64,000 nucleotides of DNA from Acutalibacteraceae bacterium (GCA_050946775.1 JBMNVL010000001.1:3229-67228); one strand, 5' to 3'. Positions 7,110 to 61,416 are shown, counted from the stretch's first letter. Notes: generated from the letters alone by a model not told the origin. Translations and numbers: made by a program.

Positions 7110-7262
7110 CCGCGGGCAAACGCTATCCCTACGGGTTGCCGTCGGCTGTCGCCATCGCGCCTGCCGATCCAGCCCCTTTACACAAGGGGGCCACACATCG
7201 CCCGAAGAATCGTTTATCGTCATCCCGCGGGCAGATGATATCCGTGTCTGCGGCACGCGGAC
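7110..7262 (-). repeat. Composite REP-like intergenic repeat (short version), inserted between atpB and atpD
   Basis: Its reverse complement contains ..cggcaacccgtaggg.. and ..gggatgacgataaacgattcttcgggcga..gtggccc.. These match modules at 46183-46260 and 46451-46488. Confidence 0.7.
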
Positions 7263-22261: not shown

Positions 22262-22947
22262 GGCGCAGGACGAATAGAGCTGAAAACACAAAAAGTGATA
22301 TATCTCGCTTGCGCTCGATGTGATATTTTTCGCTGGCGCGAAAAGTGATATTGCTCCCTTCGGTCGCAGTGATATTCTATTCGCCTTTTTAGCTGCGCGC
22401 AGCGCAATATCACTCGGCGCAAGCCGAATATAACGCAACGCAATATCACTCGCCGCAAGGCGAATAGAGTTGAAAAAAGCACGCTTTCGCGTGCTTTTTT
22501 CTGTGCTTACCGAACGAATATGCAAAACGGATATAATTAGTAAAAACTGTGTTTTTCGCCTGATTTCGGTTCTCTATGTAATACCCATCCTTAAACGAAT
22601 GAAACCACAAAAGTGAAATATCGAGCTTTGCTCGATGTGATATGTTTGCCTTGCGGCAAACGTGATATTTTTCGCTTGCGCGAAAAGTGATATTATATTC
22701 GTTCCTTCACTCGTCCGCAGGACGAATATCACTGCGAAGCAATATCACTCGACCGAAGGTCGAATATAACTCGTTCCGAAGGAACGAATATAGTTGAAAA
22801 AAACCTCGTCTTTCGACGAGGTTTTTTCTGTGATTATCGAACAAATATGCAAAATGGGAGAAATGGGTAAAAAAGTGTGTTTTGAACCCTGTTTCAGTTC
22901 TATGTATATTACCCAGACTTAAACGAACGAAATCACAAAACCAAACC
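22262..22947 (+). repeat. Tandemly duplicated (2 x ~330 bp plus a partial unit) array of short GC-stem hairpins flanked by GTGATAT / ATATCAC heptamers; each unit ends in an intrinsic terminator and an AT-rich tail
   Basis: Examples: gtgatatttttcgcTTGCgcgaaaagtgatat, gtgatatgtttgccTTGCggcaaacgtgatat, atatcactcgaccGAAGgtcgaatata. Unit ends are ..gaatagagttgAAAAAAGCACGCtttcGCGTGCTTTTTT and ..gaatatagttgAAAAAAACCTCGTCtttcGACGAGGTTTTTT. Confidence 0.8.
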
Positions 22948-23120
22948 AGTATCCTAAAAAGAAAGACTGCAGAAGTGTACTGGTCTTGCAAAAAGAAAAT
23001 CACCCTTCATCGAACACGAATGGTTTAGACTTGAAGAGGAACTCATTCACTAATTCTTGTACAAGCTCATTGAATATCGGCTGCATTTTTTTGGTATATG
23101 GCAGCACAAAAGGAACTGTA

Positions 23121-23387
23121 TCAATTGTCTTGGATGATTATTTTATAAACTTCACGGGCAATTCTTTCAAGGCAACCAAGATAATTACATTCTATTAATC
23201 CCTGAATATGTGGTTTAATTCCTGAAATAATTTCTTCACTGTACTCTTTAGAAAGACATGCTTCCGTTTGCACCTTCTCTACACCACCAAATGGCGTTTC
23301 ACAAACCTCTTCAGAACGAGCATAAATGTGACTAGTATCGTTAGGAGAATTGAACATGTACTTAATTATCAAAATGTTTTCCTCCAT
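23121..23387 (-). CDS. Hypothetical protein (island-borne)
   Basis: 88-aa ORF in AT-rich DNA, co-oriented with the KilA-N-like gene. May start at the internal Met (23357). Confidence 0.35.
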   Translation of the reverse strand: MEENILIIKYMFNSPNDTSHIYARSEEVCETPFGGVEKVQTEACLSKEYSEEIISGIKPHIQGLIECNYLGCLERIAREVYKIIIQDN

Positions 23388-23970
23388 CTAATAACATGAC
23401 TCTTTTAGAAATCAGCTTTATCAATTCATATCTACGCTCCGGGTATAGCCATGTAATGAAATCAATCGCAATCGGTTCGACGGCAAGGGTTCCGCCACCG
23501 GAACCCTGCTTCGATTCAATACCCCGAGCGTTTGTTTCGGTGATCCAAGCCTTCGCAGTCAAAGTGAAGGACGGCTCGTGTGTTTTCTCAATCAATGTCT
23601 TCGCCGCCTCATCGTTAAAATAATGAGGGTTATGCTCCTTTTCCCAAAGTCGCAGGAATTCCAAAGTATTCCGATCCCGCAGCCACGATTGAATCATATA
23701 TCCGGGGTTTGTTTCATTTTTGCGTTTGGCGAATTGAGTGAGCGAAACCATACGGCGCTCGTTGTTCTTTCGATATATTTGCAAATCAAACAAAAGCTTG
23801 GCGTATTCTTTATTCGTCGCTATGAGTTTTTCAATCTTTTCTTTTTCATCTTGAATCTGCAATTCTATTTCTGCTTGCGGTATTTTTATCTTTTTTAGAA
23901 CGCGACGAATGTTTTCTGAATATTCAGTCAAATACTCTTGAACAGCGTCACCGTAAAAATCAAAATCCAT
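23362..23970 (-). CDS. KilA-N-domain-like DNA-binding protein with an N-terminal coiled coil
   Basis: ..SWLRDRNTLEFLRLWEKEHNPHYF..FTLTAKAWITETNARGIESKQGSGGGTLAVEPIAIDFITWLYPE.. resembles KilA-N family proteins of phages and islands. Confidence 0.55.
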   Translation of the reverse strand: MDFDFYGDAVQEYLTEYSENIRRVLKKIKIPQAEIELQIQDEKEKIEKLIATNKEYAKLLFDLQIYRKNNERRMVSLTQFAKRKNETNPGYMIQSWLRDRNTLEFLRLWEKEHNPHYFNDEAAKTLIEKTHEPSFTLTAKAWITETNARGIESKQGSGGGTLAVEPIAIDFITWLYPERRYELIKLISKRVMLLDGGKHFDN

Positions 23971-24034
23971 ATCTACTTCCCCCTGTTATTTTAAATAATA
24001 TCACATTTTTTCAAAAAATAACAGGGGGTATTTG

Positions 24035-24325
24035 TTAACACGCCTTTTTGGATCTACGATCCTTTTCGATGCACATCTTGTAAAACATATCAAACGAAAC
24101 GATGTCAATATAGTTTTTACTGGATAACACATTATCAATATACTGCGCCGACCACCGATCTTTACCGGAAGGAGACTTAATCCCTCTGCTGAAAAGTTCA
24201 TCGGCTATTTTTCTCAAACTGCAACCGCCAAGATACATATCGTAAATCAATTTGATTGCCTTTGCCTCATCTTCTTTAATGCAAATTCTGTCACCGACAA
24301 CTTGATAACCATAAATAATTCTCAT
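24035..24325 (-). pseudogene. Fragment of a large serine recombinase (recombinase-domain segment only)
   Basis: ..GYQVVGDRICIKEDEAKAIKLIYDMYLGGCSLRKIADELFSRGIKSPSGKDRWSAQYIDNVLSSKNY.. matches the 'recombinase' domain. The N-terminal resolvase catalytic domain and the C-terminal zinc-ribbon region are absent. Confidence 0.6.
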
Positions 24326-24526
24326 CGTAAAACCATCCTTTCTATTCCACTTATTTTTATGTTTAGGTTTTGTAAAAAAGCAAACCTACAGTTTTTTAGG
24401 TTTGCAAGCGGTAAATATGTGTTTTTGAGCCTGTTTTGAGGCCAAAACGCGTCTTTTTGGTCAAAAATCGCCCGGAAAAAGCAACAAACCCACTCCATTT
24501 TATGTATGGAATGGGCTTGTCAATCA

Positions 24527-26082: not shown

Positions 26083-26721
26083 TCAGAATTTGCGCTTGCT
26101 TTCCATCACCCGGCCGACGATCCGCACCTTGGCGGCGTCGTCGCCGCGAAAGCGGCGGGGCGGGTAATAGGGATTGACGCTGTGCAGCTCGATGCCGTCG
26201 GGCAGATAGCGGATCTGCTTGACGGTGCCCTCTTCGTTGTCGATCACCGCCACGGCGTAATCGCCCGAGTCCACCCGGTCCTGCCGGCGGATCAGCACCA
26301 GATCCCCTTCGTTGATCAGGGGCGTCATGCTGTCGCCCGACACGGTGAACCAGCAGTACGGCTCGTTTCCCCGCACCGAGGAAGCAGCCGCCGGCTCGTA
26401 GCCGACGATCTCCTCGAACACCGCGCCGCCGAAGCCGCCCTTGACCACCCCGAGAATGGGCAGGCGCACCGTGCCGTCGACCGCCGGGCGTACCGGCCGC
26501 ACCGTGTTGTCGCCCTGCAGCCAGCCGACGGTGACCCCGTAATGCTCGGCCAGCAGACTGAGAGTGGCGCGGCTGATGTTGGCGGTGGAGCCGCTTTCCC
26601 ACCGCATGACGGTGGTCTTGTTGACCCCCAGCACCGCCGCCACCTGCTCCAGCGTTTCGCGGCGCTCTTCCCGGCATTGGCGTAGCCGCCGCGCCGTGAT
26701 CGACAGGGCTTCCCGCTCCAT
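26083..26721 (-). CDS. Phage CI-type repressor: XRE HTH + S24 (LexA-like) autopeptidase domain
   Basis: 212 aa from ATG 26721 (RBS AAGGAGG). ..LEQVAAVLGVNKTTVMRWESG.. is the HTH. ..VSGDSMTPLINEGDLVLI...VKQI.. is the S24 Ser/Lys dyad region. Confidence 0.85.
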   Translation of the reverse strand: MEREALSITARRLRQCREERRETLEQVAAVLGVNKTTVMRWESGSTANISRATLSLLAEHYGVTVGWLQGDNTVRPVRPAVDGTVRLPILGVVKGGFGGAVFEEIVGYEPAAASSVRGNEPYCWFTVSGDSMTPLINEGDLVLIRRQDRVDSGDYAVAVIDNEEGTVKQIRYLPDGIELHSVNPYYPPRRFRGDDAAKVRIVGRVMESKRKF

Positions 26722-26745
26722 CGCATCCGCCTCCTTTTTTTCTTT

Positions 26746-26773
26746 AGTATAACACATTTTGCAACGAGGTCAA
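26746..26773 (-). promoter_or_regulatory. Promoter of the repressor gene
   Basis: Minus strand: TTGACC-16 nt-TATACT. Overlapped by a GTTGCAAAATG box (26755-26765, inverted). Confidence 0.55.
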
Positions 26774-26804
26774 GCATATTTTCAAAAAAAGTTGCAAAAT
26801 GCTA

Positions 26805-26855
26805 TTGACAAGTGGAAAAAATGGGGCTATCATAGACATAGAACATTTGTTCTAT
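26805..26855 (+). promoter_or_regulatory. Promoter of the phage head/packaging operon, with an SOS-box-like palindrome at +1
   Basis: TTGACA (26805-10)-17 nt-TATCAT (26828-33), then the perfect palindrome ATAGAACA-TT-TGTTCTAT (26838-55) containing GAAC-N4-GTTC. A GTTGCAAAATG box at 26791-26801 abuts the -35. Confidence 0.6.
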
Positions 26856-27036
26856 GTTCTCCGCCGTTGGGGGACGGCGGGAAAAAGAAAACGCCGCAGG
26901 GGGAAAGACAAACCGGGAGCGCCGCGGGAGAAGCGAAAACGGTTCCGGCGGAAAAGCGACGCTGGGGAAGCCGGATCCGCTTTACAGGCAGACGCTTCCG
27001 GGGGAAGGAATCCGTCCAGGTGAGAAAGGAGGCCGT

Positions 27037-27093
27037 ATGACCGCAAAGCATCCGCGGCAAACGCGAAACCGGCAGGGGATCGGGGATGGTTGA
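27037..27093 (+). CDS. 18-codon upstream ORF translationally coupled to the small terminase gene
   Basis: A perfect RBS, AAAGGAGG, lies 6 nt before ATG 27037 (MTAKHPRQTRNRQGIGDG). Its TGA overlaps the ATG of the next gene (ATGGTTGA). Confidence 0.3.
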   Translation: MTAKHPRQTRNRQGIGDG

Positions 27094-27460
27094 TCTTCAC
27101 CGTCCCGCCCGGATCCGGGCGGCGATCCGACGGGCCGAGGCCTACGCCGAGGAGCGCAAGGTACCGCTGACCGCCGAACGGCTGGCGGCGGAATTGGGAC
27201 TGGACGGCGAGGGATACCGCCGGCTGATCGATCCCGCGTTTACCCCGCCCGACGGGGAATGCGCCGCCGCCCTGGAGGCGATCCGCGCCGCCAACACCCG
27301 GGCGCTGGCAAGCGTGCTGGAGCACGCCCTGACCAAAGGCTCAGGGGTGCATATGCACCTGATGTATCTCAAGCAATACGCCGGTTACACCGACGCCGCC
27401 GCGCCGGCGCCGACCGACGGACCGGTCCGGTTTTTCGGGGAATCCGAGCTGCCGGAATAA
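27086..27460 (+). CDS. Putative terminase small subunit
   Basis: 124 aa, immediately upstream of terL. The N-terminal HTH-like segment ..LTAERLAAELGLDGEGYRRL.. fits. The assignment rests mainly on position. Confidence 0.45.
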   Translation: MVDLHRPARIRAAIRRAEAYAEERKVPLTAERLAAELGLDGEGYRRLIDPAFTPPDGECAAALEAIRAANTRALASVLEHALTKGSGVHMHLMYLKQYAGYTDAAAPAPTDGPVRFFGESELPE

Positions 27461-27498
27461 CGGCGAAAGCCGCATTTTTTTAAGCGGAAAGTTGCAAA

Positions 27499-27723
27499 AT
27501 GCAATTTTCGGAAAGGAACAACGCATTGAAGGATATGATACGGGCATACCGGCAAACGCGGCAGATCCTGGCGCGCCGGCGGGAGGATCTGATCGGCCAG
27601 CGGGGCAACTGTGAGCGGCGGATCCTGGTGCTGGAGGCCGAGATCGACGAGGTGGACGAGGTGCTGCGGATGCTGGCCAAATACGATGACGAATCAACCG
27701 CGACCGGCCGACGCGCCGGATGA
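27499..27723 (+). CDS. Hypothetical coiled-coil phage protein
   Basis: 74-aa ORF between terS and terL that overlaps the terL start. The RBS is weak. Confidence 0.35.
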   Translation: MQFSERNNALKDMIRAYRQTRQILARRREDLIGQRGNCERRILVLEAEIDEVDEVLRMLAKYDDESTATGRRAG

Positions 27724-29020
27724 AAAAGGGGTGTATCTGCCCGCCGTGGTCGGCGGGGGATACCGGGCGTTCTGGAACTGCCGCAAGCGCTACCGGGTGG
27801 TCAAGGGAGGCAAGGCCTCCAAAAAATCCTCCACGGCGGCGCTGTGGTACGTCTGGCAGATGATGAAATACCCCGACGCCAACGTGATGGTGATCCGGGC
27901 GGTGCAGCGCACCCACGAAAACAGCACCTTTGCCCAGCTTCGGTGGGCGATCCGCCGGCTGGGGGTGGAGCATTTGTGGGACGCGACCCGCCATCCGCTG
28001 GAGCTGACCTATCGCCCGACCGGGCAAAAGATCTTTTTCCGGGGGATGGACAAGGTGGAAAAGCTGGCTTCCACCACGGTGGAGCGGGGCGTGATCTGCT
28101 GGGTGTGGATCGAGGAAGCGTACGAGATCGCCGACGAGGAGGATTTTCTAAAGCTGGATCTGTCGATGCCCCGCGGGGTGGTGACGCCGCCCCTGTTCAA
28201 GCAGACCACCCTGACCTTCAACCCCTGGAGCGACCGGCATTGGCTCAAGCGGCGGTTTTTCGATCAGCCCCATCCCGACGTGCTGGCCATGACCACCACC
28301 TATCGCTGCAACGAGTTTCTCGACGACGCCGACCGGGCGGTCTACGAGAATCTCAAGCGGCGCTCGCCCCGGCGGTACGCCGTGGCGGGACTGGGGGAAT
28401 GGGGCGTGGCGCAGGGGCTGGTGTTCGACCGCTGGCGGGTGGAGGCGTTTGACAAAAGCGCCCTGCCCGAAAGCTGCCGGTTCATTTTCGGGCTGGACTA
28501 CGGCTACGCCAACGATCCCACCGCCTTCATCGGGGCGGCGGTTGATCAGCCCGGCCGGACGCTGTATATCTTCGACGAGCATTACGGCAAACGGATGCTC
28601 AACAGCGATATCGCCGCCATGATCCGCCAAAAGGGCTACGCCAAGGAGCGCATCCGCGCCGACAGCGCCGAGCCCAAATCCAACGAGGAGCTGCGCCGGA
28701 TGGGGCTGCAGCGGATCTGCCCGGCGATAAAGGGTCCGGATTCGGTGCTGCACGGCATCGCCCGGCTGCAGGAGTACGATATGGTGGTGCATCCCGACTG
28801 CGTCAACACCGTCGCCGAGCTGTCGGCTTACTGCTGGGACAAGGATCAGGCGGGACAGCCGGTCAACCGCCCGGTCGACCGGGACAACCATCTGATGGAC
28901 GCGCTGCGCTACGCCATGGCCGACGTGCCGCTTCCCCGGCGGGAAGAGCGTCGCCGCCCGTCCGTCAGCACAAACGGGGTGCTGCCCGCCCATTTGCGGG
29001 GACAATGGGGCGGCGCCTGA
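27686..29020 (+). CDS. terL: Phage terminase large subunit (PBSX-like family)
   Basis: About 444 aa from ATG 27686. ..RVVKGGKASKKSSTAALW.. is Walker-A-like. ..WVWIEEAYEI.. is Walker B. The C-terminal nuclease shows ..DYGYANDPTAF.. and ..DNHLMDALRYA.. Confidence 0.85.
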   Translation: MTNQPRPADAPDEKGVYLPAVVGGGYRAFWNCRKRYRVVKGGKASKKSSTAALWYVWQMMKYPDANVMVIRAVQRTHENSTFAQLRWAIRRLGVEHLWDATRHPLELTYRPTGQKIFFRGMDKVEKLASTTVERGVICWVWIEEAYEIADEEDFLKLDLSMPRGVVTPPLFKQTTLTFNPWSDRHWLKRRFFDQPHPDVLAMTTTYRCNEFLDDADRAVYENLKRRSPRRYAVAGLGEWGVAQGLVFDRWRVEAFDKSALPESCRFIFGLDYGYANDPTAFIGAAVDQPGRTLYIFDEHYGKRMLNSDIAAMIRQKGYAKERIRADSAEPKSNEELRRMGLQRICPAIKGPDSVLHGIARLQEYDMVVHPDCVNTVAELSAYCWDKDQAGQPVNRPVDRDNHLMDALRYAMADVPLPRREERRRPSVSTNGVLPAHLRGQWGGA

Positions 29021-29037
29021 CAGAAAGGGAGAACGCA

Positions 29038-29256
29038 ATGGCATTTTTATTGGGAACGACGGGGGCGTTGGCGGTGGTGATCGCCTACGCGCTCGGGGTA
29101 TGGCGGGGATCGGCCGCCGCCCGACGGGATCGCCTTGCCCGCACCGCTCCCGCCGGCGAGCCGTCGCCGGAGGAAAAGCGGCGAATGCGGGAGATCTACA
29201 ATTTCTGGCACTTCGACGGGGACGCCATGCCCCGCCCGTCGGAGGATGAGCGATGA
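29038..29256 (+). CDS. Small phage membrane protein
   Basis: 72 aa from ATG 29038 (RBS AAGGGAG). Single TM segment MAFLLGTTGALAVVIAYALGVW. Confidence 0.4.
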   Translation: MAFLLGTTGALAVVIAYALGVWRGSAAARRDRLARTAPAGEPSPEEKRRMREIYNFWHFDGDAMPRPSEDER

Positions 29257-29270
29257 AAGGAGAAACGCCA

Positions 29271-30980
29271 ATGGCCAACAGCGCCATCACCCCCGAGCGG
29301 GTGTTTGAGGAATACGAACGGGGCGCGCGGTACAAAAACGGACTGGGCAAACGGGGCTTGTACGAGCAAAACCGGATCAACGAGCGGTTTTACGCCGGGG
29401 ATCAGTGGCGAGGCGCCAACTGCGGCGACGAGCGTCCGCTGGTGCGCTACAACGTCATCAAGCGGATCGGCGAGTACAAGATCGCCGCGGTGGGATCCAC
29501 CCCGGTCGGGGTGCGGTATCTCGCCGAAGGGGTCCCCGATACCCTCGCCACCCGCCAGAAGACCGAACAAATGCGTCAGCGGATTGCCGCCGGGGACGCC
29601 GACACTCTCGGCGATCTGCCCCGCGAGGAGGAGATCGCCGCCGTGACCCAGGCGATGTCGGACTATTACAAGATCACCGGCGCCCGGGTGGGGCTGGAGG
29701 ACTGCAAGGAGCGGGTGCTGCGAAACGCCTATCTGACCGGCACCGGCATCCTCTACACCTACTGGGACGAGGGCGTGGCCACCGGTCAGTTCGCCGACAG
29801 GGATCGCGCCCAGCCCATCCGGGGAGATATCGCCTGTGAGGTGCTCGACGTGGAGAACGTCACCTTCGGCGATCCCGCGGTGGAGGAGATCCAGCGCCAG
29901 CCCTACCTGCTGATCGCCCAAAGGCGGCCGGTATCCTCCCTGCGGGCGCTGGCGCGCCGCTATGGCCGCACGGCGGCGCAGCAGGCGCTGATCCGCCCCG
30001 ACGACGAGCCGGTCTACGGCGACGACCCGGTACAGGAGGGCGGGCGCAAGGCCACCCTGCTGACCCGCTTTTGGAAGCGGGAAAATCCCGACGGCAGCGT
30101 GACCGTCAAGGGGATCCAGGTCTGCCGGGGGGTGGTGGTGCGTCCCGAGTGGGATCTGGGGATCCGGCTGTATCCGCTGGCAAATTTTGCATGGGATCGC
30201 CGCCGCGGCTGCGCTTACGGCGACAGCGAGATCACCTGGCTGATCCCCAACCAGATCGCCATCAACCGGATGATGACCGCCTCGGTGTGGGCGGTGATGA
30301 TGATGGGGATGCCCATCATGGTGGTCAACGGGGACGTGGTCAACCAGCCGGTCACCAACGATCCCGGCCAGATCATCCCGGTCTACGGCTCGCCCGAGGA
30401 GGTGGAAAAGGCGATCCACTACGTGGCGCCGCCGGCCTTTTCGGCGCAGTACGACGAGCTTTGCTCGTCGCTGATCGTCAACACCCTCAACCAGGCCGGC
30501 GTCAACAGCGCCGTGCTGGGCGACATGACCCCCGACAACACCTCCGCCATTCTGGCGGTGCGCCAGGCGGCGATGATGCCCCTGACCATGATCAGCCAGC
30601 GGTTTTACCGCTTCATCGAGGACGTCGCCCGGATCTTCGCCGAGTTCTGGGTGACCCAGTACGGCTGCCGCCGGTTGAAAATGGAGGACAGCCGGGGGGT
30701 GTGGTATCTGCCCTTCGACGCCGATCGCTACCGCGATCTGGTGCTCAGCGTGCAGGTGCAGGTGGGCGCGTCCTCGCTGTGGAGCGAAAACCAGACCCTG
30801 CAGACGCTGGACAACCTGTTCGCCCGCCAGGTGATCGACTCCCGCCAGTATCTCGAGCGGCTGCCCGACGGGGCGGTGCCCGATCTGGCGGGACTCAAGC
30901 GGGAGTTCAAAACGGCGGATCAGCCGCCAGAGAAAGGAGACACGCCGGATGCATCTGATCGAGAAGGAACCGCCGATTGA
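29271..30980 (+). CDS. Phage portal protein
   Basis: About 569 aa from ATG 29271 (RBS AAAGGAGAA). Its size and its position after terL fit. ..NRINERFYAGDQW.. is an N-terminal motif common in portal proteins. Confidence 0.8.
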   Translation: MANSAITPERVFEEYERGARYKNGLGKRGLYEQNRINERFYAGDQWRGANCGDERPLVRYNVIKRIGEYKIAAVGSTPVGVRYLAEGVPDTLATRQKTEQMRQRIAAGDADTLGDLPREEEIAAVTQAMSDYYKITGARVGLEDCKERVLRNAYLTGTGILYTYWDEGVATGQFADRDRAQPIRGDIACEVLDVENVTFGDPAVEEIQRQPYLLIAQRRPVSSLRALARRYGRTAAQQALIRPDDEPVYGDDPVQEGGRKATLLTRFWKRENPDGSVTVKGIQVCRGVVVRPEWDLGIRLYPLANFAWDRRRGCAYGDSEITWLIPNQIAINRMMTASVWAVMMMGMPIMVVNGDVVNQPVTNDPGQIIPVYGSPEEVEKAIHYVAPPAFSAQYDELCSSLIVNTLNQAGVNSAVLGDMTPDNTSAILAVRQAAMMPLTMISQRFYRFIEDVARIFAEFWVTQYGCRRLKMEDSRGVWYLPFDADRYRDLVLSVQVQVGASSLWSENQTLQTLDNLFARQVIDSRQYLERLPDGAVPDLAGLKREFKTADQPPEKGDTPDASDREGTAD

Positions 30981-31383
30981 GGAAGAGGAGTCCCTGTCGC
31001 CGCAGGAGAGTGAGCCGCAGGAGGAATGCCCCGCGTCGCCCGATCCGGTCGGGGAAGAAGAGGCGGGAACGGATGATCCCGCCGAGGAGCGGGCGCTGAT
31101 CGACCGGCTGGCCGACGAGTTTGTCGCCCTGGCCGAGGAGATGGACGGGGTGGCGCAGCCGGAGGATCTGCCCGACGAGATCTGGCAGACGGCGGCCGAG
31201 GGAGTGCCCTTGCGGGACGCCTGCCTGCGCTACTGGTACGCCGAATACTGCCGCCGTCAGGCGGCGCAGCGGGCGGCGGCCCGCGCCGGCGCCGGGTCGG
31301 CGGGATCGCTGCGGGACGTGCCCGACGATCCCCGGCCCGAGGAAGCCGCTTTCGCCCGGTCGTTTCGTACGGCCGTCAACTGA
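30949..31383 (+). CDS. Acidic scaffolding-like protein
   Basis: 144 aa and very acidic (EEEESLSPQESEPQEE...). It lies between portal and capsid genes, and no prohead protease gene is present. Confidence 0.45.
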   Translation: MHLIEKEPPIEEEESLSPQESEPQEECPASPDPVGEEEAGTDDPAEERALIDRLADEFVALAEEMDGVAQPEDLPDEIWQTAAEGVPLRDACLRYWYAEYCRRQAAQRAAARAGAGSAGSLRDVPDDPRPEEAAFARSFRTAVN

Positions 31384-31409
31384 TGGAATTTTGAAAGGAT
31401 GGAATCACT

Positions 31410-32315
31410 ATGAATATGATCACTTTCGCGCAGACCATGACCGCCGAGCTGGACAAGGCCGTCGTGCAAAAGCCGGTCACCGGCTTTTTCGCCGACAACA
31501 ACCTGCGCAGCAAATTCGTGGGCGCCAAAACGGTGCTGATCCCCGAAATGGAAATGTCGGGGCTGGGCGATTACGACCGGGATTCCGGCTTCGTCAAGGG
31601 CACCATCACGGTGACCAGCCAGCCCTATACCCTGCAGATGGACCGCGGACGCTCCTTCCAGCTTGACCGGGAGGACAACGACGAGAGCGGCGTTGCCGGT
31701 CTGGCCGGCCAGGTGCTGGGCGAGTTCGTGCGTACCAAGGTGGTGCCCGAAATGGACGCCTACTGCCTGTCCAAGCTGGCGGGTCTGGCGGTGCAGAACA
31801 GCCAGACCGTCTCCGGCACGCCGGCGACCCAGGCCTACAAGATGCTTTGCGAGGCCATCGCCAAGGCGCAAAACGAGATCGGCTACGACGAGGAGCTGGT
31901 CGCCTTTGTCGACGGCGCCATGTTCACCGCGCTGCAAAACAGTGCCGAGGTCAGCCGCCACATCGAGATGTCTTCCTTCTCCAAAGGCGGGCTGGACACC
32001 ACCGTGCGCTCCCTCAACGGCACGGCGATCATCCCGGTGCCCGATTCGCGGATGAAGACCGCCTACACCTTCCAAAACGGGGTGGACGCCGGCCAGCAGG
32101 ACGGCGGGTTCGTGCCTGCCGCCAACGCCAAGAGCATCGGGCTGCTGGTGCTGCCCAAACGGGCGGCGTCGCTGGTCAAGAAGACCGAGCAGGTGCGCAC
32201 CTTCGATCCGGCGCACAACCTGCAGGCCGACGCCTGGAAGTTCGACTACCGGCTGTACTATGACCTGTTCGTGAAAAACAGCATGAGCAAGGGCATCGTC
32301 GCCTACACCTATTGA
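31410..32315 (+). CDS. Phage major capsid protein
   Basis: 301 aa after the scaffold-like gene. Size and composition are typical of small HK97-fold coat proteins. RBS AAAGGATGG. Confidence 0.7.
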   Translation: MNMITFAQTMTAELDKAVVQKPVTGFFADNNLRSKFVGAKTVLIPEMEMSGLGDYDRDSGFVKGTITVTSQPYTLQMDRGRSFQLDREDNDESGVAGLAGQVLGEFVRTKVVPEMDAYCLSKLAGLAVQNSQTVSGTPATQAYKMLCEAIAKAQNEIGYDEELVAFVDGAMFTALQNSAEVSRHIEMSSFSKGGLDTTVRSLNGTAIIPVPDSRMKTAYTFQNGVDAGQQDGGFVPAANAKSIGLLVLPKRAASLVKKTEQVRTFDPAHNLQADAWKFDYRLYYDLFVKNSMSKGIVAYTY

Positions 32316-32364
32316 TCCGATGACCAATGGAGCGGGTGGGCGGGATGACTGCGGAGGAATGGAT

Positions 32365-32742
32365 ATGACGGGATACGAGGTGCTGGAGCAGGCGCTTTGT
32401 CTGCTCCACTACACCGACAACGACGGGCATCCCGACAGCCGGCTGTGGGCCGATACCGACCGCCAGGGTCTGGCGGCGGTCAATCAGGTATACGCCGAGC
32501 TGTGGTATGCCCACAGACGGGACGCCTTCACGCCGCTGGCGCGGCTGAGCGATCCGCTGGCGCTGACCGATCAAAGCGCCCGCGAGGCGATGCCGCTGGG
32601 GGTGGCGATGTGGATGGCGCAGGGCGAGGGCGACGCCGCTCAGCAGGCGGTGATGGCGCAGGCCTACACCCAAAAGCGCAACCGCGTCACGCCGCCTGCC
32701 GCCCGGCGGCAGGACGTGCTGCCCCGGGGGGAATGGGTATGA
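32365..32742 (+). CDS. Hypothetical phage protein (possible head completion/adaptor)
   Basis: ORF 32320..32742. ATG 32365 has the best-spaced RBS (GGAGGAA). ATGA overlap with the next gene. Confidence 0.4.
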   Translation: MTGYEVLEQALCLLHYTDNDGHPDSRLWADTDRQGLAAVNQVYAELWYAHRRDAFTPLARLSDPLALTDQSAREAMPLGVAMWMAQGEGDAAQQAVMAQAYTQKRNRVTPPAARRQDVLPRGEWV

Positions 32743-34628
32743 GATACGCACCCATGCCCGCGCCGCCGCTCTGGCGGGAGGAAGTCTTCCCCGGCTTTGA
32801 CGGCGGGCTGGTCAGCCAGCCGGATCGGCAGCCGCCGGGAGAATGTCTGCTGCGCCAGGCGGACAATCTGTGGCGGCGGCCCGACGGACTGCGTACCCGT
32901 CCGTCGGTGAAGGCGGTCAGCCGGTTCAGCCGCCGTCAGGGAACGCTGGAGCCGCTGCGGCAGGTCGAGCAGACGACGGGGTATTCCTGGTGGGTGGAAG
33001 CCTTCACCCAAAACGGCGCCGCCGCGCTGCAGCTGTTCCGGCTGGACGCCGACGGGCGGCAAATCACGGTGGGCGATCCGCTGGCGGTCTCCTACGCGGT
33101 GATCACCCCCACCGTGTCGGGATGGCTGGCCATTGCCGACAACCACGTCTACAGGCTGACCGGCGGACAGGGCGCCTGGATCAACGCCGACGGGGATATC
33201 CATATCCCCGTTATCCGGCGGGGATGCCGGGGATGTCTGCCCACCGAGGTCCAGCCGCTGGCCGGCCGGGAACACGAGGAGCTCAACCATCTGACCGACC
33301 GGTTTTCGGTCGATTACACCACCGACGGCGAATCGCCCCGGTTTTATCTGCCCTACAGCGGGTTGGACGACGGGGAGGTGACGGCGGTGCTGACCACCGA
33401 CACCGGGCAGAGGCTGACCTACCGGGTGACGGCGGGACAAACCGACAGCGCGCCGGCCGACGGGCGGTATATGCGGGTCAGCCGGGCGGGCGGTTACGTG
33501 CAGTTTCGCAGCGCCCTGTGGGACGACCAGGACGATCCGCCCCCGGTCAGCGGCCGGGAGGACAACCTGCGGATCACCGCCGCCAAAGCCGGGATCAGCG
33601 GCAATCTGACCCGGCGGATGCGCCAGGGCGCCTGGCTGACCGGGGACGATCGCCGTGCCACGCTGGTGCTGACCGGCAACGCCTTTGACTCCTCGCTGAT
33701 CTGCTGGAGCGCCGCGGGCGACCCGTTGTATTTTCCGGCCAGCCACACCGCCCGGGTGGGCGATCCGCAAGGCTATATCAGCGCCATCCAGCCGCTGCGC
33801 GACCGGCTGCTGCTGTTCAAAAAAAGCTGCATCTATATGCTGACGGCGACCACCGCCATCGGCGCCGAGCCGGAGAAGGTGTATGTGACGCTTTATCCCT
33901 CGGCGACCGGCTGCGACCGGCCGCAGACCATCTGCATGGGCGACGACCGGCTGTTCTGGGTGGACACCCACGGACGGGTGCGCAGTCTCTCCTTTTCGCA
34001 GATGACCACCCGTCAGCCGCCCGAGCTGCTGTCCACGGCGATCACCGATCCCCTGCGGGAAGCGCTGACCGCCGCCGGGAGCGATACCGCGGCGGTCTGG
34101 TGGCGTGGGCAGTATCTGCTGCGGGTCGGCGGCGCGATCTGGACCTTTTCCCCGGGCAAACGGCCGGCTTGGGGTCGCTGGACGCTGGACGGGCGGTTGT
34201 CGCCCGACCGGATGGCGGTCGTCGGCGACCGGGCGGAGCTGCTTTGCCGGGATCAAAACGGCGGACAGGCCACCTGGGTGGTCTGCCATTTGTCCGACGA
34301 CGAAAGCGGCGAAGACCGGCTGGAGATCGGCGGGCAGACGGTCAACGCGCCCATCGCCTACGCCGCCGCCACTACCCTGTGGGACGTGAAGGCTCCCGAC
34401 CGCAAGCGGATGGACGCCGCGGCGCTCGACGCCGATCTTCCGCCGGGACAGGCGCTGGTGCTGCATTTCGACACCGAATGGGGCGCGGCCGAACGGCTGC
34501 GGCTGACGCCGGGGCAATCCGGCGGGCATTGGCTGCCCTTTCGGCTGTCCCGGTTTTCCCGGCTGGCGGTCCGCTTTGCGGGGAAAGGCTTTTTGCGGAT
34601 CCGGCGATTGCGGATACGGGTGAGGTGA
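32739..34628 (+). CDS. Large orphan phage structural-like protein (629 aa)
   Basis: Starts at ATG 32739 within track ORF 32397..34628. It is the last large gene of the operon. I recognise no motif. Repeated W/G-rich beta-like segments suggest a propeller-type fold (inference). Confidence 0.5.
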   Translation: MRYAPMPAPPLWREEVFPGFDGGLVSQPDRQPPGECLLRQADNLWRRPDGLRTRPSVKAVSRFSRRQGTLEPLRQVEQTTGYSWWVEAFTQNGAAALQLFRLDADGRQITVGDPLAVSYAVITPTVSGWLAIADNHVYRLTGGQGAWINADGDIHIPVIRRGCRGCLPTEVQPLAGREHEELNHLTDRFSVDYTTDGESPRFYLPYSGLDDGEVTAVLTTDTGQRLTYRVTAGQTDSAPADGRYMRVSRAGGYVQFRSALWDDQDDPPPVSGREDNLRITAAKAGISGNLTRRMRQGAWLTGDDRRATLVLTGNAFDSSLICWSAAGDPLYFPASHTARVGDPQGYISAIQPLRDRLLLFKKSCIYMLTATTAIGAEPEKVYVTLYPSATGCDRPQTICMGDDRLFWVDTHGRVRSLSFSQMTTRQPPELLSTAITDPLREALTAAGSDTAAVWWRGQYLLRVGGAIWTFSPGKRPAWGRWTLDGRLSPDRMAVVGDRAELLCRDQNGGQATWVVCHLSDDESGEDRLEIGGQTVNAPIAYAAATTLWDVKAPDRKRMDAAALDADLPPGQALVLHFDTEWGAAERLRLTPGQSGGHWLPFRLSRFSRLAVRFAGKGFLRIRRLRIRVR

Positions 34629-34632
34629 GAGC

Positions 34633-34743
34633 ATGACGCGACCGGTACAAGCGGACAAACGGGCGATCGCCCGGCAGGTGATCATCCGGCGGCTGGACCG
34701 CCGCATCCGCCGCTGCTGTCTGACGAAAGCCGTCAAAAAATAA
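34633..34743 (+). CDS. Small basic ORF (36 aa) ending the phage operon
   Basis: RBS GGTGAGGTGA + ATG 34633. MTRPVQADKRAIARQVIIRRLDRRIRRCCLTKAVKK. Below the ORF-track size cut-off. Confidence 0.3.
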   Translation: MTRPVQADKRAIARQVIIRRLDRRIRRCCLTKAVKK

Positions 34744-34747
34744 AACG

Positions 34748-34783
34748 ACGCCCGCGGGATCGCACGATCCCGCGGGCGTTTTG
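34748..34783. terminator. Bidirectional intrinsic terminator closing the phage operon and the glg/XRE transcript
   Basis: aaaACGCCCGCGGGATCGcaCGATCCCGCGGGCGTtttg. Confidence 0.8.
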
Positions 34784-34784
34784 C

Positions 34785-34988
34785 TCATTCATCCGCCGTA
34801 TATGCGGCAATGTCCTCCAACCGGCAATTCAAAGCGGCGCAAAGCTTGTTCAAGGTTTTGGCTTCGATGTTGTCGTTGGCGCGAAGACGGCGGATCGTTT
34901 TGCTGTCGATTCCGCAGCGCTCCCGCAATTGATAGGTAGACATCCCGCGTTGCGCCATTGTTTTCCATAACCGATCAAACCGAATCAT
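34785..34988 (-). CDS. XRE-family HTH regulator (HTH_26-like), start overlapping the glgA stop
   Basis: 67 aa from an internal ATG of track ORF 34785..35585. MIRFDRLWKTMAQRGMSTYQLRERCGIDSKTIRRLRANDNIEAKTLNKLCAALNCRLEDI. ATGA overlap with glgA. Confidence 0.75.
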   Translation of the reverse strand: MIRFDRLWKTMAQRGMSTYQLRERCGIDSKTIRRLRANDNIEAKTLNKLCAALNCRLEDIAAYTADE

Positions 34989-36406
34989 GATTTGAGTACT
35001 TCCTTGTACATCCGGATGTACTCGTTTGCCGAACGGGCCCAGCTGAAATCGCATCGCATCGCCCGCTCCACCAGCACCGGCCAGCCGGTCTTGCCGGCGT
35101 AAACGTCCAGCGCCCGGTGGATGGCGTAGAGCATATCGTTGGCGTTGTAGGTCTGGAAGGTGAAGCCGTTGCCCACGCCGTCGCCGCAGTCGCGGATGCT
35201 GTCCTTGAGTCCGCCGGTCTGCCGCACGACGGGCAGGGTGCCGTACCGGCAGGCCACCATCTGCGCCAGACCGCAGGGCTCGCTCTTGGAGGGCATCAGG
35301 AAGATATCGGCGCCGGCGTAGATCTTGCGGGCCAGCTCCGGCACGAAGCCGCTGCAGAAGCAGAACTTGTCCCGGTATTTCTCCTGCATCTCCCGGAAAA
35401 AGCTTTCGTACTGCCAGTCGCCCGAGCCCAGCACCACCATCTGCACCTTGTCCTGCAGCAGCTCGTCGAGGATGTATTTGACCAGATCCAGTCCCTTGGG
35501 CGGCACCAGCCGGGTGACCATGCCGATCAGCGGAACGTCGGGGCTGACGGTCAGTCCCAGCCGTTCCTGCAGCGCCTTTTTGCACGCCGCCTTGCCCGAC
35601 GGATCGTCGGCGGAATAGTGGGCGGGAATATCCGGATCGGTCTCGGGGTTATAGGCGTCCACGTCGATGCCGTTGAGAATGCCGCTGACCTTCCAGCTGC
35701 GATCCCGCAGGATGCTGTCCAGACCGAAGGCGTACCACGGATCCATGATCTCCTGCGCGTAGGTGGGACTGACGGTGGTCACCTTGTGCGCCGCTTCGAT
35801 GCCGCCCTTCATCAGGTTGATATCGCCGCCGTGCTCCAGCAGGCTCTTGTCCCGGTCGTCGATGCCGAAAACGTCCCCCAGAATCTCCATCCCGTACCGC
35901 CCCTGGTACTGGATGTTGTGGATGGTGTAGACGGTCTTGATATGCTGATAGTCCTTCCGGTTGGCGTAGAACAGGTGGTGATACACCGGCACCAGCGCCG
36001 CCTGCCAGTCGTTGGCGTGGATGATGTCGGGATAAAAGTCGATCGCCGGCAGCATCTCCAGTACCGCCCGGGCGAAAAAGGCGAACCGTTCGGCGTCGTC
36101 GTAATGCCCGTACAGGCCGGGACGTTTGAAATAGTACTGATTGTCCAGCAGATAATAGATCACGCCGTTTCGGCGGGCTTCAAACACGCCGCAGTACTGC
36201 CGCCGCCAGGAAACCGGCACCGACAGGCTGGTCAGAAAGGTCATCTGCTCCCGCAGCTCCTGCGGAACCGATTCATACAGCGGCAGCACCACCCGGCAGC
36301 CGACCAGCCGCCGGCGCAGCGCCTGGGGCAAGCTGCCCGCCACGTCCGCCAGTCCGCCCGACGCCGCGAAGGGCGCCGCTTCACTGGCAACATACAAAAC
36401 TTTCAT
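34985..36406 (-). CDS. glgA: Glycogen synthase (ADP-glucose type)
   Basis: MKVLYVASEAAPFAASGGLADVAGSLP... The length (473 aa) is canonical. Confidence 0.95.
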   Translation of the reverse strand: MKVLYVASEAAPFAASGGLADVAGSLPQALRRRLVGCRVVLPLYESVPQELREQMTFLTSLSVPVSWRRQYCGVFEARRNGVIYYLLDNQYYFKRPGLYGHYDDAERFAFFARAVLEMLPAIDFYPDIIHANDWQAALVPVYHHLFYANRKDYQHIKTVYTIHNIQYQGRYGMEILGDVFGIDDRDKSLLEHGGDINLMKGGIEAAHKVTTVSPTYAQEIMDPWYAFGLDSILRDRSWKVSGILNGIDVDAYNPETDPDIPAHYSADDPSGKAACKKALQERLGLTVSPDVPLIGMVTRLVPPKGLDLVKYILDELLQDKVQMVVLGSGDWQYESFFREMQEKYRDKFCFCSGFVPELARKIYAGADIFLMPSKSEPCGLAQMVACRYGTLPVVRQTGGLKDSIRDCGDGVGNGFTFQTYNANDMLYAIHRALDVYAGKTGWPVLVERAMRCDFSWARSANEYIRMYKEVLKS

Positions 36407-36431
36407 GGTAAAACCTCCTTGGCAGCCGCCG

Positions 36432-37544
36432 TTACACCACGGCGCCTTTGGCGACGAACATGGGATAATCCGCCGCGCCCTGCAAAACGACGCCGTCCTT
36501 GATGGTGACGTTTTTGTCCAAAACGGCGCCCCGCAGCACCGCGCCGGCGCCGATATGGGCGCCCTGCATCACGATGCAGTTCTCCACCACCGCGCCTTTT
36601 TCGATCACCACGTTGCGGAAAACGATGGACCGGCGCACCGTCCCCTCGATCCGGGCGCCGTCGGCGACCAGCGAATCGGCCGCGTCGGCGTGCAGACCGT
36701 ATTTGGCCGGCGCGCAGTCCCGCACCTTGGTGTAGACCGGACGTCCGGCCGGGAAAAGGGCGGCGCGGATGTCGGCGTTCAAAAAGTCCATGTTGACGGC
36801 GAAGTAGCGCGCCAGCGAACAGACCGGCTCGACGTATTCGGTGATGGCGATGCCGTGAATGGGCATGGTGTCGACCTGCTTTTGCAGGATGTCCCGCTCA
36901 AAATCCAACCGGTTGTGCCCCGCGGCGTCGGCCACCAGCTGGCACAGCCGGTCGCGGCGCAGGATCACGATCCCCAGCCCGTAACAGCCGTCGGCCGGCT
37001 CGCCGCCGGTCACCCGCAGATCGGTCACCCGGCCGGACGGGTCCATCGTCAGGGCCAGCGTTCCCGGCAGCGCCGGGAAGGGTCCCCGTTTGTAAGCCAG
37101 CGAGATCTCGGCGCGGGATTCCAGATGCTCGTCGATCAGCCGGTCGTAGTCGATGTTGCCCAGCAGATGGCAGTCGCTGAGGATGACGTATTCCTCCTGC
37201 GCGTGGCGCAAAAAGCTGTCGATCTCGCTGAGCACCGCGATCCGCCCGTCGTACGCCTCCTTCCGGGGATCGGAGGAGGGCAGGAAGGTCAGCCCGGCGT
37301 GCTTGCGGGACAAATCCCACGCCTTGCCCGAGCCGATGTGGTCGAACAGCGATTGATAGTGGCTTTTGGTGACGATCCCCACCCGGCTGACGCCGGCGTT
37401 GACCAGCCCCGACAGGGTGAAGTCGATCAGCCGGTACCGCCCGCCGACCGGAAGGGATCCCATTGCCCGCACGGCGGTCATATCCCGCAGCGCCTCGTCG
37501 TGCCGGTTGGCGAAGATCAGCGCCAATACGTTGTTGTTACGCAT
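36432..37544 (-). CDS. glgD: Glucose-1-phosphate adenylyltransferase, GlgD (regulatory) subunit
   Basis: 370 aa. ..[36 protein letters not shown].. Sits between glgC and glgA, as in Firmicutes. Confidence 0.9.
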
Positions 37545-38754
37545 CCTTTTCGCCTCCCTTTACGTCGTGCTCGACCATGGCCTTGGGCGGTACCGCGGCG
37601 CCGGCGCCGACGGTCACGCCCGCGGCGACCACCGCCACGCCCCAGTCCTCCGTATGCTCCTCCGGCCGGGCGCCGACGACGGCGTTTTCCTCCACCGTCA
37701 CGTTCTCCGCCAAAATGGCGTACTGCACCGTGGCGCCGGCTTTGACGACGGCACCGGGCATCAGGATGGAATCGCGCACCGTGGCGCCCTTTTCCACCGT
37801 CACGCCCGAGAAGATCACCGAAAAGTCGACCTCGCCGCGGATGTCGCTGCCTTCGGAGATCAGGGCGTTTTCCACCTTGGCCTCCGGGCCGATGTAGTGG
37901 GGCGGATGGCCCTCGGTGCGGGAGTAGATCCGCCAGGTGGGATCGGCCAGATCCAGCGAGGTCTGCGGCGCCAGCATATCCATATTGGCTTCCCACAGAC
38001 TGTCGATGGTGCCCACGTCCTTCCAGTAGCCGTCGAAGCGGTAGGCGAACATCCGCTGGCCGTCGCCCAGCATGGCCGGCAGGACGTTCTTGCCGAAATC
38101 GTTTTGGGACGCGGGATCGTTTTCGTCCAGGGTGAGATAGTGCTTGAGTTTGTCCCAGGTGAAAACGTAGATGCCCATCGAGGCGAGATTGCTCTTGGGA
38201 TGGGCGGGCTTTTCCTCAAATTCGTAGATGGAGTCGTCGGGGTTGGTGTTCATGATGCCGAACCGGCTGGCCTCCTCCATCTCCACCTCCAGCACGGCGA
38301 TGGTGCAGTCGGCCCGGTTGCGCTTGTGGGCGGCGATCATTTTGGAATAATCCATTTTGTAGATGTGGTCGCCCGACAGCACCAGCACGTATTCCGGCTG
38401 ATACCGCTCGATGAAATCCATGTTCTGGTAAATGGCGTTGGCGGTGCCCTTGTACCAGTCGGCGCCCTGGTTGCGCTGATAGGGCGGCAGCACGTGTACC
38501 CCGGCGCCCAGCCGGTCGAGATCCCACGGCTCGCCGGCGCCGATGTAATCGTTGAGCTCCAACGGCTGGTACTGGGTCAGCACCCCCACCGTTTCGATGC
38601 CGGAATTGACGCAGTTGGACAGGGGAAAGTCAATGATCCGGTATTTGCCGCCGTAAGGAACGGCGGGCTTGGCGATCTTGCGGGTCAGCGCGTAGAGCCG
38701 GCTTCCCTGACCGCCGGCCAGCAGCATGGCCACGCACTCCTGTTTGCGATACAT
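37537..38754 (-). CDS. glgC: Glucose-1-phosphate adenylyltransferase
   Basis: ..[40 protein letters not shown].. 405 aa. Confidence 0.95.
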
Positions 38755-57811: not shown

Positions 57812-57848
57812 CTCCCGCCGGTGTGATGCACACCGGCGGGAGTTTTTT
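57812..57848 (+). terminator. Intrinsic terminator between the convergent nth and phosphoesterase genes
   Basis: CTCCCGCCGGTGTGatgCACACCGGCGGGAGtttttt. Confidence 0.8.
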
Positions 57849-61204: not shown

Positions 61205-61416
61205 CGACGCATCCTGCCCTGTGCGTGGACCGCTGCCTTTTGACCCTACTACAGTTTTGATTCGGGAGCCCGGCTCCGGCGCCGGGATGCAGACCTCCCC
61301 GCTTTGGGCGGGACGAAGGGAGCGCGAACGCGCCGGGCGGCACCCACCTGTTACGTGTCGTAGCAGGTCACTTCGGCAGCATTACGGCAGGGCGGGATAT
61401 TGTTGTTAACAGAAAA

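Follow-up and report, generated by a model that had tools for sequence, protein, structure and literature searches.

Within a 64,000-nucleotide stretch of DNA from an Acutalibacteraceae bacterium (GCA_050946775.1 JBMNVL010000001.1:3229-67228; hereafter the window), a compact operon of phage-type genes lies back to back with the gene for a CI-type repressor. This element very probably descends from a Page-like podophage, has been inherited vertically and maintained by selection, is wired into the SOS response and encodes a head, a packaging motor, an adaptor and a tail nozzle. Its domestication is well supported, and a function resembling that of gene transfer agents (GTAs) is plausible.

The operon consists of plus-strand open reading frames (ORFs) of 124, 74, 444, 72, 569, 144, 301, 125, 629 and 36 codons (27086-34743), closely spaced or overlapping and divergent from the gene for the 212-aa repressor, Rep (26083-26721, minus strand). 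The same genes (212, then 124-629 aa) were called independently on an identical contig of a different sample (L144), and thus the layout, order and intactness given in an initial annotation of this DNA were reproduced. Its view that the base composition resembles the host's also held: codon usage and composition of the module are fully host-like, with a GC content at third codon positions (GC3) of 0.838 versus 0.836 +/- 0.044 for 37 host genes, and 0.27-0.42 in ORFs of an AT-rich island to the left of the nearby tRNAs. Relatives were recovered with the portal protein as 60 GTDB species representatives, mostly metagenome-assembled genomes (MAGs) of Acutalibacteraceae, 'Ruminococcaceae' or Clostridia; synteny was mapped with tblastn, our own codon-model gene caller and clustering, on loci that are mostly MAG contigs. 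Among the several gene orders found, that of the window is referred to as type A: Rep, a small-terminase-like protein (g124), a small protein (g74), the large terminase (TerL), a small membrane protein, portal, scaffold, capsid protein and adaptor.

The initial annotation had described the operon as head-only, with no recognizable tail gene, and had left the 629-aa ORF (g629; 32739-34628, plus strand) as an orphan. After the collection of 20 homologues, g629 was modeled with AlphaFold (AF2 pLDDT 87, pTM 0.83), and the top 26 Foldseek matches of this model in the PDB were all podovirus nozzles (E 1e-17 to 1e-8), among them the structures of T7 gp12, P22 gp10, Sf6, E1004, PhiM1, Kp9, SU10 and crAss001. 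Matches in BFVD were labeled 'P22 Gp10', 'tail tubular protein B' and 'tail knob', and the protein is 24% identical to the virion protein gp14 of phage Pascal. A metagenome scan with the nozzle protein and an exact-sequence look-up returned nothing. The predicted structure thus identifies g629 as a podovirus tail nozzle of the T7 gp12/P22 gp10 fold. The 125-aa ORF immediately before it (g140; 32365-32742, plus strand) is modeled as a four-helix bundle with a C-terminal arm (AF2 pLDDT 84), and its top 12 PDB matches are Sf6 gp7 and P22 gp4 adaptors (TM 0.47-0.59, E 0.06-1). A g140 profile found nothing among PDB sequences, the adaptor likeness coming from fold comparison. Because these E-values are weak, assignment as a P22 gp4/Sf6 gp7-type tail adaptor is probable rather than proven, helped by its position: g140 is present in every relative whose contig reaches this far and lies directly 5' of the nozzle gene wherever there is one. 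With an adaptor and a nozzle encoded, the element is therefore not head-only.

The PBSX-type large terminase, portal and capsid protein named in the initial annotation were all recovered by family searches. TerL (27686-29020, plus strand) matches Terminase_3 (1.6e-46) and Terminase_3C (7e-29), both over their full length, as well as TIGR01547 (9.7e-45), and belongs to the PBSX family. The portal (29271-30980, plus strand) is of podovirus type (phrog_156, 1.8e-17, with weak matches to P22 and T7 portal families in Pfam); it shares 29-30% identity with Pagevirus portals over 93-95% of its length and 41-69% with the 60 genome loci. The major capsid protein (31410-32315, plus strand) matches phrog_422 (1.2e-79) and neither N4-gp56 nor any other NCBIfam family, and is 30-40% identical to capsid proteins of cultured phages. 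Portal, adaptor and nozzle all have homologues in Page-like podophages, and sequence comparison points to such a phage as the ancestor.

The remaining genes of the module are assigned by position or by conservation. Homologues of g124 (27086-27460, plus strand) always lie upstream of TerL or the portal gene, in 33 relatives. The protein matches no Pfam, PHROGs or NCBIfam family, and a profile of 24 homologues gave neither a PDB sequence match nor, with hhalign, a match to the small terminase (TerS) of Pascal; the small-terminase label is therefore taken from position. The next gene encodes g74 (27499-27723, plus strand), a small coiled-coil-like protein that is conserved in type-A relatives and has no match in Pfam, PHROGs or NCBIfam. 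The 72-aa membrane protein after TerL (29038-29256, plus strand) carries one N-terminal membrane helix and the C-terminal motif NF(W/L/M)xYDG(T/D)xMP. It matches no family in the same three databases, and its homologues (clusters c10/c11, 50-90 aa) follow TerL in all family members, including viral contigs of 31-39 kb. Between portal and capsid genes lies a gene for a putative scaffold, an acidic protein (30949-31383, plus strand) that again matches none of the three databases and whose C-terminal motif is conserved in relatives. PHROGs searches of the relatives' small proteins returned families of unknown function only.

As the initial annotation had reported, the window holds no integrase, replication, lysis or long-tail gene; receptor-binding, fibre or spike, ejection and plug genes were likewise not found in its 64 kb. 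The possibility, also raised there, that the orphan ORFs would supply a complete tail and lysis set was borne out for a tail stub, and no fibres or lysis set were found. The other genes of the window are housekeeping genes (V-ATPase, lactate dehydrogenase, lipid synthesis, tRNA synthetase, glycosidases and glgCDA). Integrase, excisionase, replication and primase genes are likewise absent from the window and from within 10 kb of the element in 25 type-A loci, and no family locus examined contains an integrase. One candidate, cluster c20, which lies beside Rep in some loci, was rejected as an integrase and is a MatE transporter. Within these 64 kb, the element is thus a chromosomal cluster of structural and packaging genes without genes for replication, integration or autonomous propagation, as is characteristic of GTAs.

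Promoter, repressor and LexA box

Rep was annotated initially as a divergent CI-type repressor with an XRE helix-turn-helix and an S24 peptidase domain, an assignment that profile searches support. The protein comprises 212 aa, counted from a Met codon that follows AAGGAGG, in an ORF open to 26757. It matches HTH_3 (3.5e-10), Peptidase_S24 over the full length of the Pfam domain (1.1e-24, covering 1-116/116) and the repressor family phrog_4 of PHROGs (1.8e-40); similarity to the LexA C-terminus is weak. Its translation shows a GDSM serine and a downstream lysine (TVKQ), as in self-cleaving repressors of the CI/LexA type. By these features Rep belongs to that type, and its self-cleavage is predicted.

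A strong promoter had been proposed upstream of the operon, and the site indeed agrees with the consensus at 11 of 12 positions (TTGACA-17-TATCAT; 26805-26833, plus strand); the arrangement of its -35 and -10 boxes is kept across type-A relatives. Back to back with it lies a promoter-like site presumably serving Rep (TTGACC-16-TATACT with TG; 26746-26773, minus strand). Both -35 boxes are flanked by inverted 9-mers, TTTTGCAAC and GTTGCAAAA (26757-26799; the pair itself at 26757-26765 and 26791-26799). Just upstream of the -35 box, the GCAAAATGC/GCATTTTGC motif occurs in Rep-bearing relatives and is absent from those lacking Rep. This inverted pair is a candidate operator for Rep.

A further site, absent from the initial annotation, lies 8 nt past the -10 box: a perfect 10+10 palindrome, ACATAGAACA-TT-TGTTCTATGT (26836-26857), whose core, GAACATTTGTTC (26841-26852), fits the Gram-positive consensus perfectly. 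The Gram-positive LexA (Cheo) box is a palindrome of the form GAAC-N4-GTTC. A single match in the 64-kb window is not significant by itself, as 1.0 is expected. Across 61 sequences (976 kb), however, 24 of the 30 matches occupy one orthologous site, found in 24 of the 25 type-A loci (binomial P 1.7e-30) behind a TTGACA-17-TAxxAT promoter and upstream of the g124 homologue. The weight of the box thus derives from positional conservation and not from window statistics. Eight loci without Rep still carry the promoter and the LexA box, which is most simply explained if the box is a site for the host LexA. Palindromes overlapping a promoter or start characterize Gram-positive SOS boxes, and by this measure the operon is a predicted member of the LexA regulon; LexA binding at 26836-26857 is predicted from the motif. 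The sole type-A locus without the box is L004, which has TTAACAAAGCGATAC in its place and retains Rep, the GTTGCAAAATGCA motif and a TTGACA-17-TATCAT promoter (7130-7200).

Relatives, inheritance and selection

The block has the same boundaries in a second species, represented by L054 and by two independent human-gut assemblies of that species (L145 and L146): on the left, genes for DUF3006, a metallo-beta-lactamase-fold (MBL) hydrolase and Rep, and on the right the glg operon, directly after the nozzle gene. In a third species (L001), the block likewise follows DUF3006-MBL-Rep. Synonymous divergence (dS) between the window and L054 is 0.71-1.06 for the module, compared with 0.98 for glgA and 0.82 for the MBL gene; between L037 and L040 it is 0.18 for both the capsid protein and the host gene product SufB. 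Pairwise identities of module proteins track those of SufB, SufC and TrmL (Spearman 0.5-0.9), and the capsid protein is about as conserved in relatives as the flanking SufB/SufC. The fixed chromosomal position and the divergence in step with housekeeping genes indicate immobility.

Selection was assessed with our own Nei-Gojobori code. The ratio of nonsynonymous to synonymous divergence (dN/dS) is 0.03-0.3 for most module genes (Rep 0.03-0.29, g124 0.04-0.31, TerL 0.03-0.19, capsid protein 0.03-0.14), and 0.4-0.5 between species and 0.18 within species for the nozzle; since dS between the window and L054 or L001 (0.7-2.2) is at or near saturation, the ratios from those pairs are rough. Between two strains with 98.4% identity, the module shows 91 synonymous and 33 nonsynonymous differences (pN/pS 0.12); this within-species comparison was made in the L054-like species rather than in that of the window, and its row for glgA is invalid (1-nt offset). 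At least four species-level lineages, together with more than 20 other species of the clade, have every ORF intact, and no frameshift has arisen since truncation over a synonymous divergence of 0.7-1.4. The element is thus vertically inherited and under purifying selection, as are GTAs. The initial annotation had favored selective retention over random decay and had named, as the finding that would speak against it, a recently truncated arm evolving neutrally. The shared ends, the host-like dS and a dN/dS well below 1 together reject a recent, neutrally decaying remnant and uphold retention. A further suggestion, that the neighboring ComEC-like MBL gene hints at competence, was dropped for want of evidence: the gene adjoins the element in this sub-lineage only, other members having unrelated left flanks, and the hint is consequently without support.

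In a neighbor-joining tree of the portal without bootstrap values, the type-A loci form one clade nested among type-C sequences. The latter include the 31-39 kb viral contigs, which carry many further genes, share 55-57% portal identity and have the same adaptor and nozzle families. In these complete relatives, a protein of about 300 aa follows the nozzle and many small early-type ORFs lie upstream; in L068, the one contig where the gene caller resolved the stretch, a protein of about 1900 aa comes next. Of the 80 best viral contigs, just one short fragment groups with type A. The earliest branches of that clade, which retain the nozzle, are the window, L054, L001 and L004; in about 18 informative loci of a derived group, the nozzle has been lost and the operon stops at the adaptor, next to host genes. 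These 3' host genes encode P-loop/HprK-like, PqqD-like, S24/S26-like peptidase, ABC transporter, TrmL and SufC/SufB-like proteins, and the neighborhood from the P-loop gene to SufB is conserved across at least 9-12 species. The clusters after the adaptor (c14-c19) had been candidates for tail genes and were rejected as host genes by reading their sequences. Holin-like membrane proteins (phrog_1863, weak XhlA match) directly follow the adaptor in some nozzle-less relatives.

Several individual loci deserve mention. In the nozzle-less loci L008, L016, L025, L032-L035, L037, L040, L042, L043 and L046, ORFs of 45-100 aa follow the adaptor; eight of the nozzle-less loci also lack Rep, with promoter and LexA box kept. 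The chromosomal loci L049-L055, of about 9 kb, encode TerS-like protein, TerL, scaffold, a 399-aa capsid protein, portal, adaptor and nozzle (e.g., L052 6352-15475), followed by a small c27 protein, an SH3/NlpC-P60 lysin, a phrog_1863 membrane protein and a Phage_holin_1 protein. Genes flanking L052 are host genes (DnaJ/DnaK by sequence reading). No repressor, LexA box, integrase or replication gene was found in L049-L055, and these loci represent a single-locus GTA-like design. Type-D loci (L018, L021, L026 and L048) have portal, adaptor, TerL and a fibre-like protein with collagen repeats and CBM5_12, then a holin-like ORF, Rep on the opposite strand, a small Sigma70_r4/DUF1492 regulator, the scaffold gene and, where the contig reaches, the capsid gene, with host MatE and PALP genes on the left. 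One contig of an Acutalibacteraceae MAG (JAZNJO010000063.1) holds the nozzle-less type-A locus L037 and the phage-like type-C locus L044, with a nozzle and many small early-type ORFs, about 40 kb apart, and the MAGs HGM12783 and RGIG337 hold two family members each. Such pairs could be helper and satellite.

Precedents and competing explanations

GTA-like packaging of host DNA is widespread in gut Ruminococcaceae and Oscillospiraceae, with a locus identified only in Faecalibacterium (FpGTA of F. prausnitzii) and homologues not found in Gemmiger or Subdoligranulum (PMC12946183, Nat Commun 2026). Operon I of FpGTA, about 10 kb long, encodes a possible TerS lacking any evident DNA-binding domain, TerL, portal, a Prp-like protein, a capsid protein of the N4-gp56 family, and an adaptor and a nozzle whose PDB matches are 7sp4 and 8eap, respectively; operon II, located 125 kb away, encodes fibre and receptor-binding proteins, holin and endolysin (PMC12946183). 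The particles, demonstrated experimentally, are about 40 nm across, have no visible tail and contain 8.4-8.9 kb of host DNA, and the system is near-ubiquitous in its genus (PMC12946183).

The element described here comes from the same bacterial order and has the same plan, an operon of about 10 kb running from TerS through TerL, portal, capsid and adaptor to nozzle; neither operon contains replication, integration, fibre or lysis genes. Moreover, 7sp4 is the top PDB match for g140, and 8eap ranks 13th for g629. By published description, however, the FpGTA capsid belongs to the N4-gp56 family rather than phrog_422, its TerL to the 'Terminase-like family' rather than the PBSX family, and a Prp-like protein occupies the place of the acidic scaffold; neither a repressor nor a LexA box has been reported for FpGTA, the particles of which appear in late stationary phase. 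As the capsid and terminase families differ, the window element is probably an architectural analogue of FpGTA that was domesticated independently. In the literature searched, we found no description of this Acutalibacteraceae element family or of its LexA control.

Four other systems offer partial parallels. Among cultured phages, there are the Pageviruses of Bacillus megaterium (Page, Pascal, Pony and Pookie), with 29-30% portal identity, a nozzle related to Pascal gp14 and, at the left genome end, the same order of TerS, TerL, small protein, portal, scaffold-sized protein, capsid and small proteins. Pageviruses are lytic, however, with genomes of about 40 kb that also code for spike and fibre proteins of the tail, a protein of 1672 aa, holins, an endolysin and a full replication module, none of which occurs in the window. 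PBSX of Bacillus subtilis is SOS-inducible and packages host DNA without propagating itself. It shares with the window element a PBSX-family terminase, control by a repressor and a fixed chromosomal position, SOS induction being only predicted for the latter; it differs in its locus of about 28 kb, its contractile myovirus tail and its xhlAB-xlyA lysis cassette, neither of which is found in the window, and it kills target cells without transferring DNA. Phage-inducible chromosomal islands of the capsid-forming kind (cf-PICIs) likewise encode their own terminase, portal, capsid and connectors and draw the remaining virion parts from elsewhere, but they are mobile and carry integrase, AlpA-type regulators and a replication module, which the vertically inherited window element lacks, and they encode no tail part comparable to its nozzle. 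RcGTA of Alphaproteobacteria is also a phage-derived structural cluster that is vertically inherited, slow-evolving, host-like in composition and host-regulated, with accessory genes elsewhere; it occurs in another phylum, is unrelated in sequence, derives from a siphovirus, has a complete tail in its main cluster and is governed by CtrA and quorum sensing, in contrast to the predicted operator at the promoter of the window element.

Given the operon plan of FpGTA and its distant fibre and lysis genes, a GTA-like function appears better precedented than a satellite-like one. With moderate confidence, we read the operon as coding for the head and nozzle in a GTA-like system that has its fibre and lysis genes elsewhere. 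In an unstressed cell, host LexA on the SOS box 8 nt past the -10 box and Rep on the TTGCAAAA repeats would shut the promoter; upon DNA damage, activated RecA would lead LexA and Rep to cleave themselves. Transcription of the operon would then allow portal, scaffold and capsid protein to assemble into procapsids, which the TerS-like protein and the PBSX-type (headful) terminase would load with DNA, before the gp4-like adaptor and the gp12/gp10-like nozzle close the portal. Receptor binding, ejection and lysis would most likely be supplied from a second chromosomal locus outside the window, as in FpGTA. Release of particles and transfer of packaged DNA to recipients are likewise predicted.

Several observations weigh against this picture. 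No receptor-binding, ejection, plug or lysis gene lies within 64 kb; the adaptor match has weak E-values; g124 is a TerS by position; and the capsid and terminase families are unlike those of FpGTA, so the precedent is one of architecture rather than orthology. The nozzle has a high dN/dS between species and has been lost from most members of the clade, a poor fit to a self-sufficient delivery particle. Finally, in the human-gut strain L148 (1-5067) a junction 570 nt upstream of g124 separates the operon from Rep and its promoter. The L148 operon is 98.4% identical to that of L145, is joined to unrelated host genes for cytidylate-kinase-like, RpiR-like and 590-aa surface proteins, and is without Rep, promoter or LexA box; the junction may be a real rearrangement or an assembly artefact.

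Such missing delivery functions might instead be borrowed. A helper-dependent capsid-forming satellite would make its own heads, adaptor and nozzle, obtain spikes or fibres, ejection proteins and lysis from a related Page-like podophage, either co-resident or superinfecting, and thereby package and spread its own or neighboring DNA. Related complete phages do exist, as the 31-39 kb viral contigs attest; JAZNJO010000063 and the two other MAGs hold paired family members; and SOS control would bring the element into step with the induction of prophages. The tail spikes of P22-type phages join finished heads after packaging, and such late attachment also suits a helper. We nevertheless regard a satellite as unlikely: genes for integration, excision, replication and priming are missing from the window and from the 10 kb around each of the 25 type-A loci, the conserved position and the divergence in step with flanking housekeeping genes indicate immobility, and the type-A clade includes a single short fragment among the 80 best viral contigs. 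Moreover, procapsids normally incorporate ejection proteins, which would require a helper to be expressed at the same time.

The absence of release and delivery genes from the window could also mean that particles need not leave or enter cells. The element would then be an SOS-triggered anti-phage or abortive module titrating the tail or packaging parts of a relative, or its capsids would sequester damaged or foreign DNA. In line with this, the derived clade dropped the nozzle and kept terminase, portal and capsid under strong selection, and evolution is faster in the nozzle than in the head genes, as would be expected of a surface in contact with phage partners. Yet no known defence gene adjoins the element (no PADLOC search was made), and release by lysis is suggested by the holin-like proteins after the adaptor in some nozzle-less relatives and by the Phage_holin_1 protein and SH3/NlpC-P60 lysin of sister loci; with a mechanism that lacks precedent, we consider either form of exaptation quite improbable. 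Hardly credible, finally, is a functionless remnant, in which disabling mutations would simply not yet have accumulated in a Page-like prophage's left arm. Its gene order does equal that at the left end of Pageviruses, nothing of the phage remains to the right of the nozzle and the apparent L148 rearrangement severs the operon from its promoter, but the intact ORFs across so many lineages, the low dN/dS and pN/pS, the synonymous divergence of 0.7-1.4 without a frameshift, the conserved promoter and operator and the host-like codon usage all speak against decay.

Returning to the GTA-like reading, its widest form can be proposed only tentatively: the family would be a second, independently domesticated podovirus-derived GTA family, fixed in Acutalibacteraceae and relatives (at least 25 species) and SOS-wired through a LexA operator. 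If so, a non-orthologous locus of FpGTA-like design would exist in a neighboring family, and it could account for GTA-like packaging in gut Oscillospirales that have no identified locus. The natural variants with or without nozzle and repressor would form a reduction series, from loci with both, through loss of the nozzle, to loss of the repressor, and so record the reduction of a phage to a host-controlled particle. The predicted trigger, DNA damage, is simple and makes the element directly testable; if the element is active, antibiotics and other SOS inducers would directly drive capsid-mediated gene flow among these fibre degraders, which are abundant in the gut and rumen.

Leader, terminator and surrounding window

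The 18-codon upstream ORF noted initially is present (27037-27093, plus strand); it has a strong ribosome-binding site, GAAAGGAGG, and its stop codon overlaps the g124 start. Its protein is not conserved, the leaders of relatives carrying unrelated small ORFs (c12/c52), and an Rfam scan of the 250-nt leader found no RNA family. In the L145/L148 species, the leader from the LexA box to g124 is unusually long, at about 1.1 kb. At the other end of the operon, the basic 36-codon ORF (34633-34743, plus strand) is putative, with no homologue detected in relatives and no match in Pfam, PHROGs or NCBIfam. The hairpin terminator that had been proposed there is a bidirectional intrinsic terminator with a 14-bp stem, including 11 G-C pairs, and T-runs on both strands (34748-34779); it is common to the operon and a convergent small XRE gene (34785-34988, minus strand). 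In L054, a glgB-like gene takes the place of this XRE gene directly after the nozzle gene, and the glg operon of the window (34985-38754) is inverted relative to that of L054 (15997-21623).

To the left, an AT-rich island (22400-24500, GC 39-46%) adjoins a tRNA-Cys/Gly/Phe cluster and contains an ORF with a KilA-N domain (23362-23970, minus strand), a 96-aa fragment with the serine-recombinase domain 'Recombinase' (24035-24325, minus strand) and a Gut-1 RNA match at Rfam gathering level (22721-22796, minus strand, 51 bits). This island is probably the stump of a different mobile element that was acquired recently and has no relation to the capsid operon. A 6S RNA match, also at Rfam gathering level, lies at 61208-61402 (plus strand, 55 bits). 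Three large secreted proteins (15785-18715, 51150-52631 and 57847-60147), one of them combining GH43 with a GDSL esterase, carry dockerin type I domains, which point to a host that degrades fibre by means of a cellulosome-type system.

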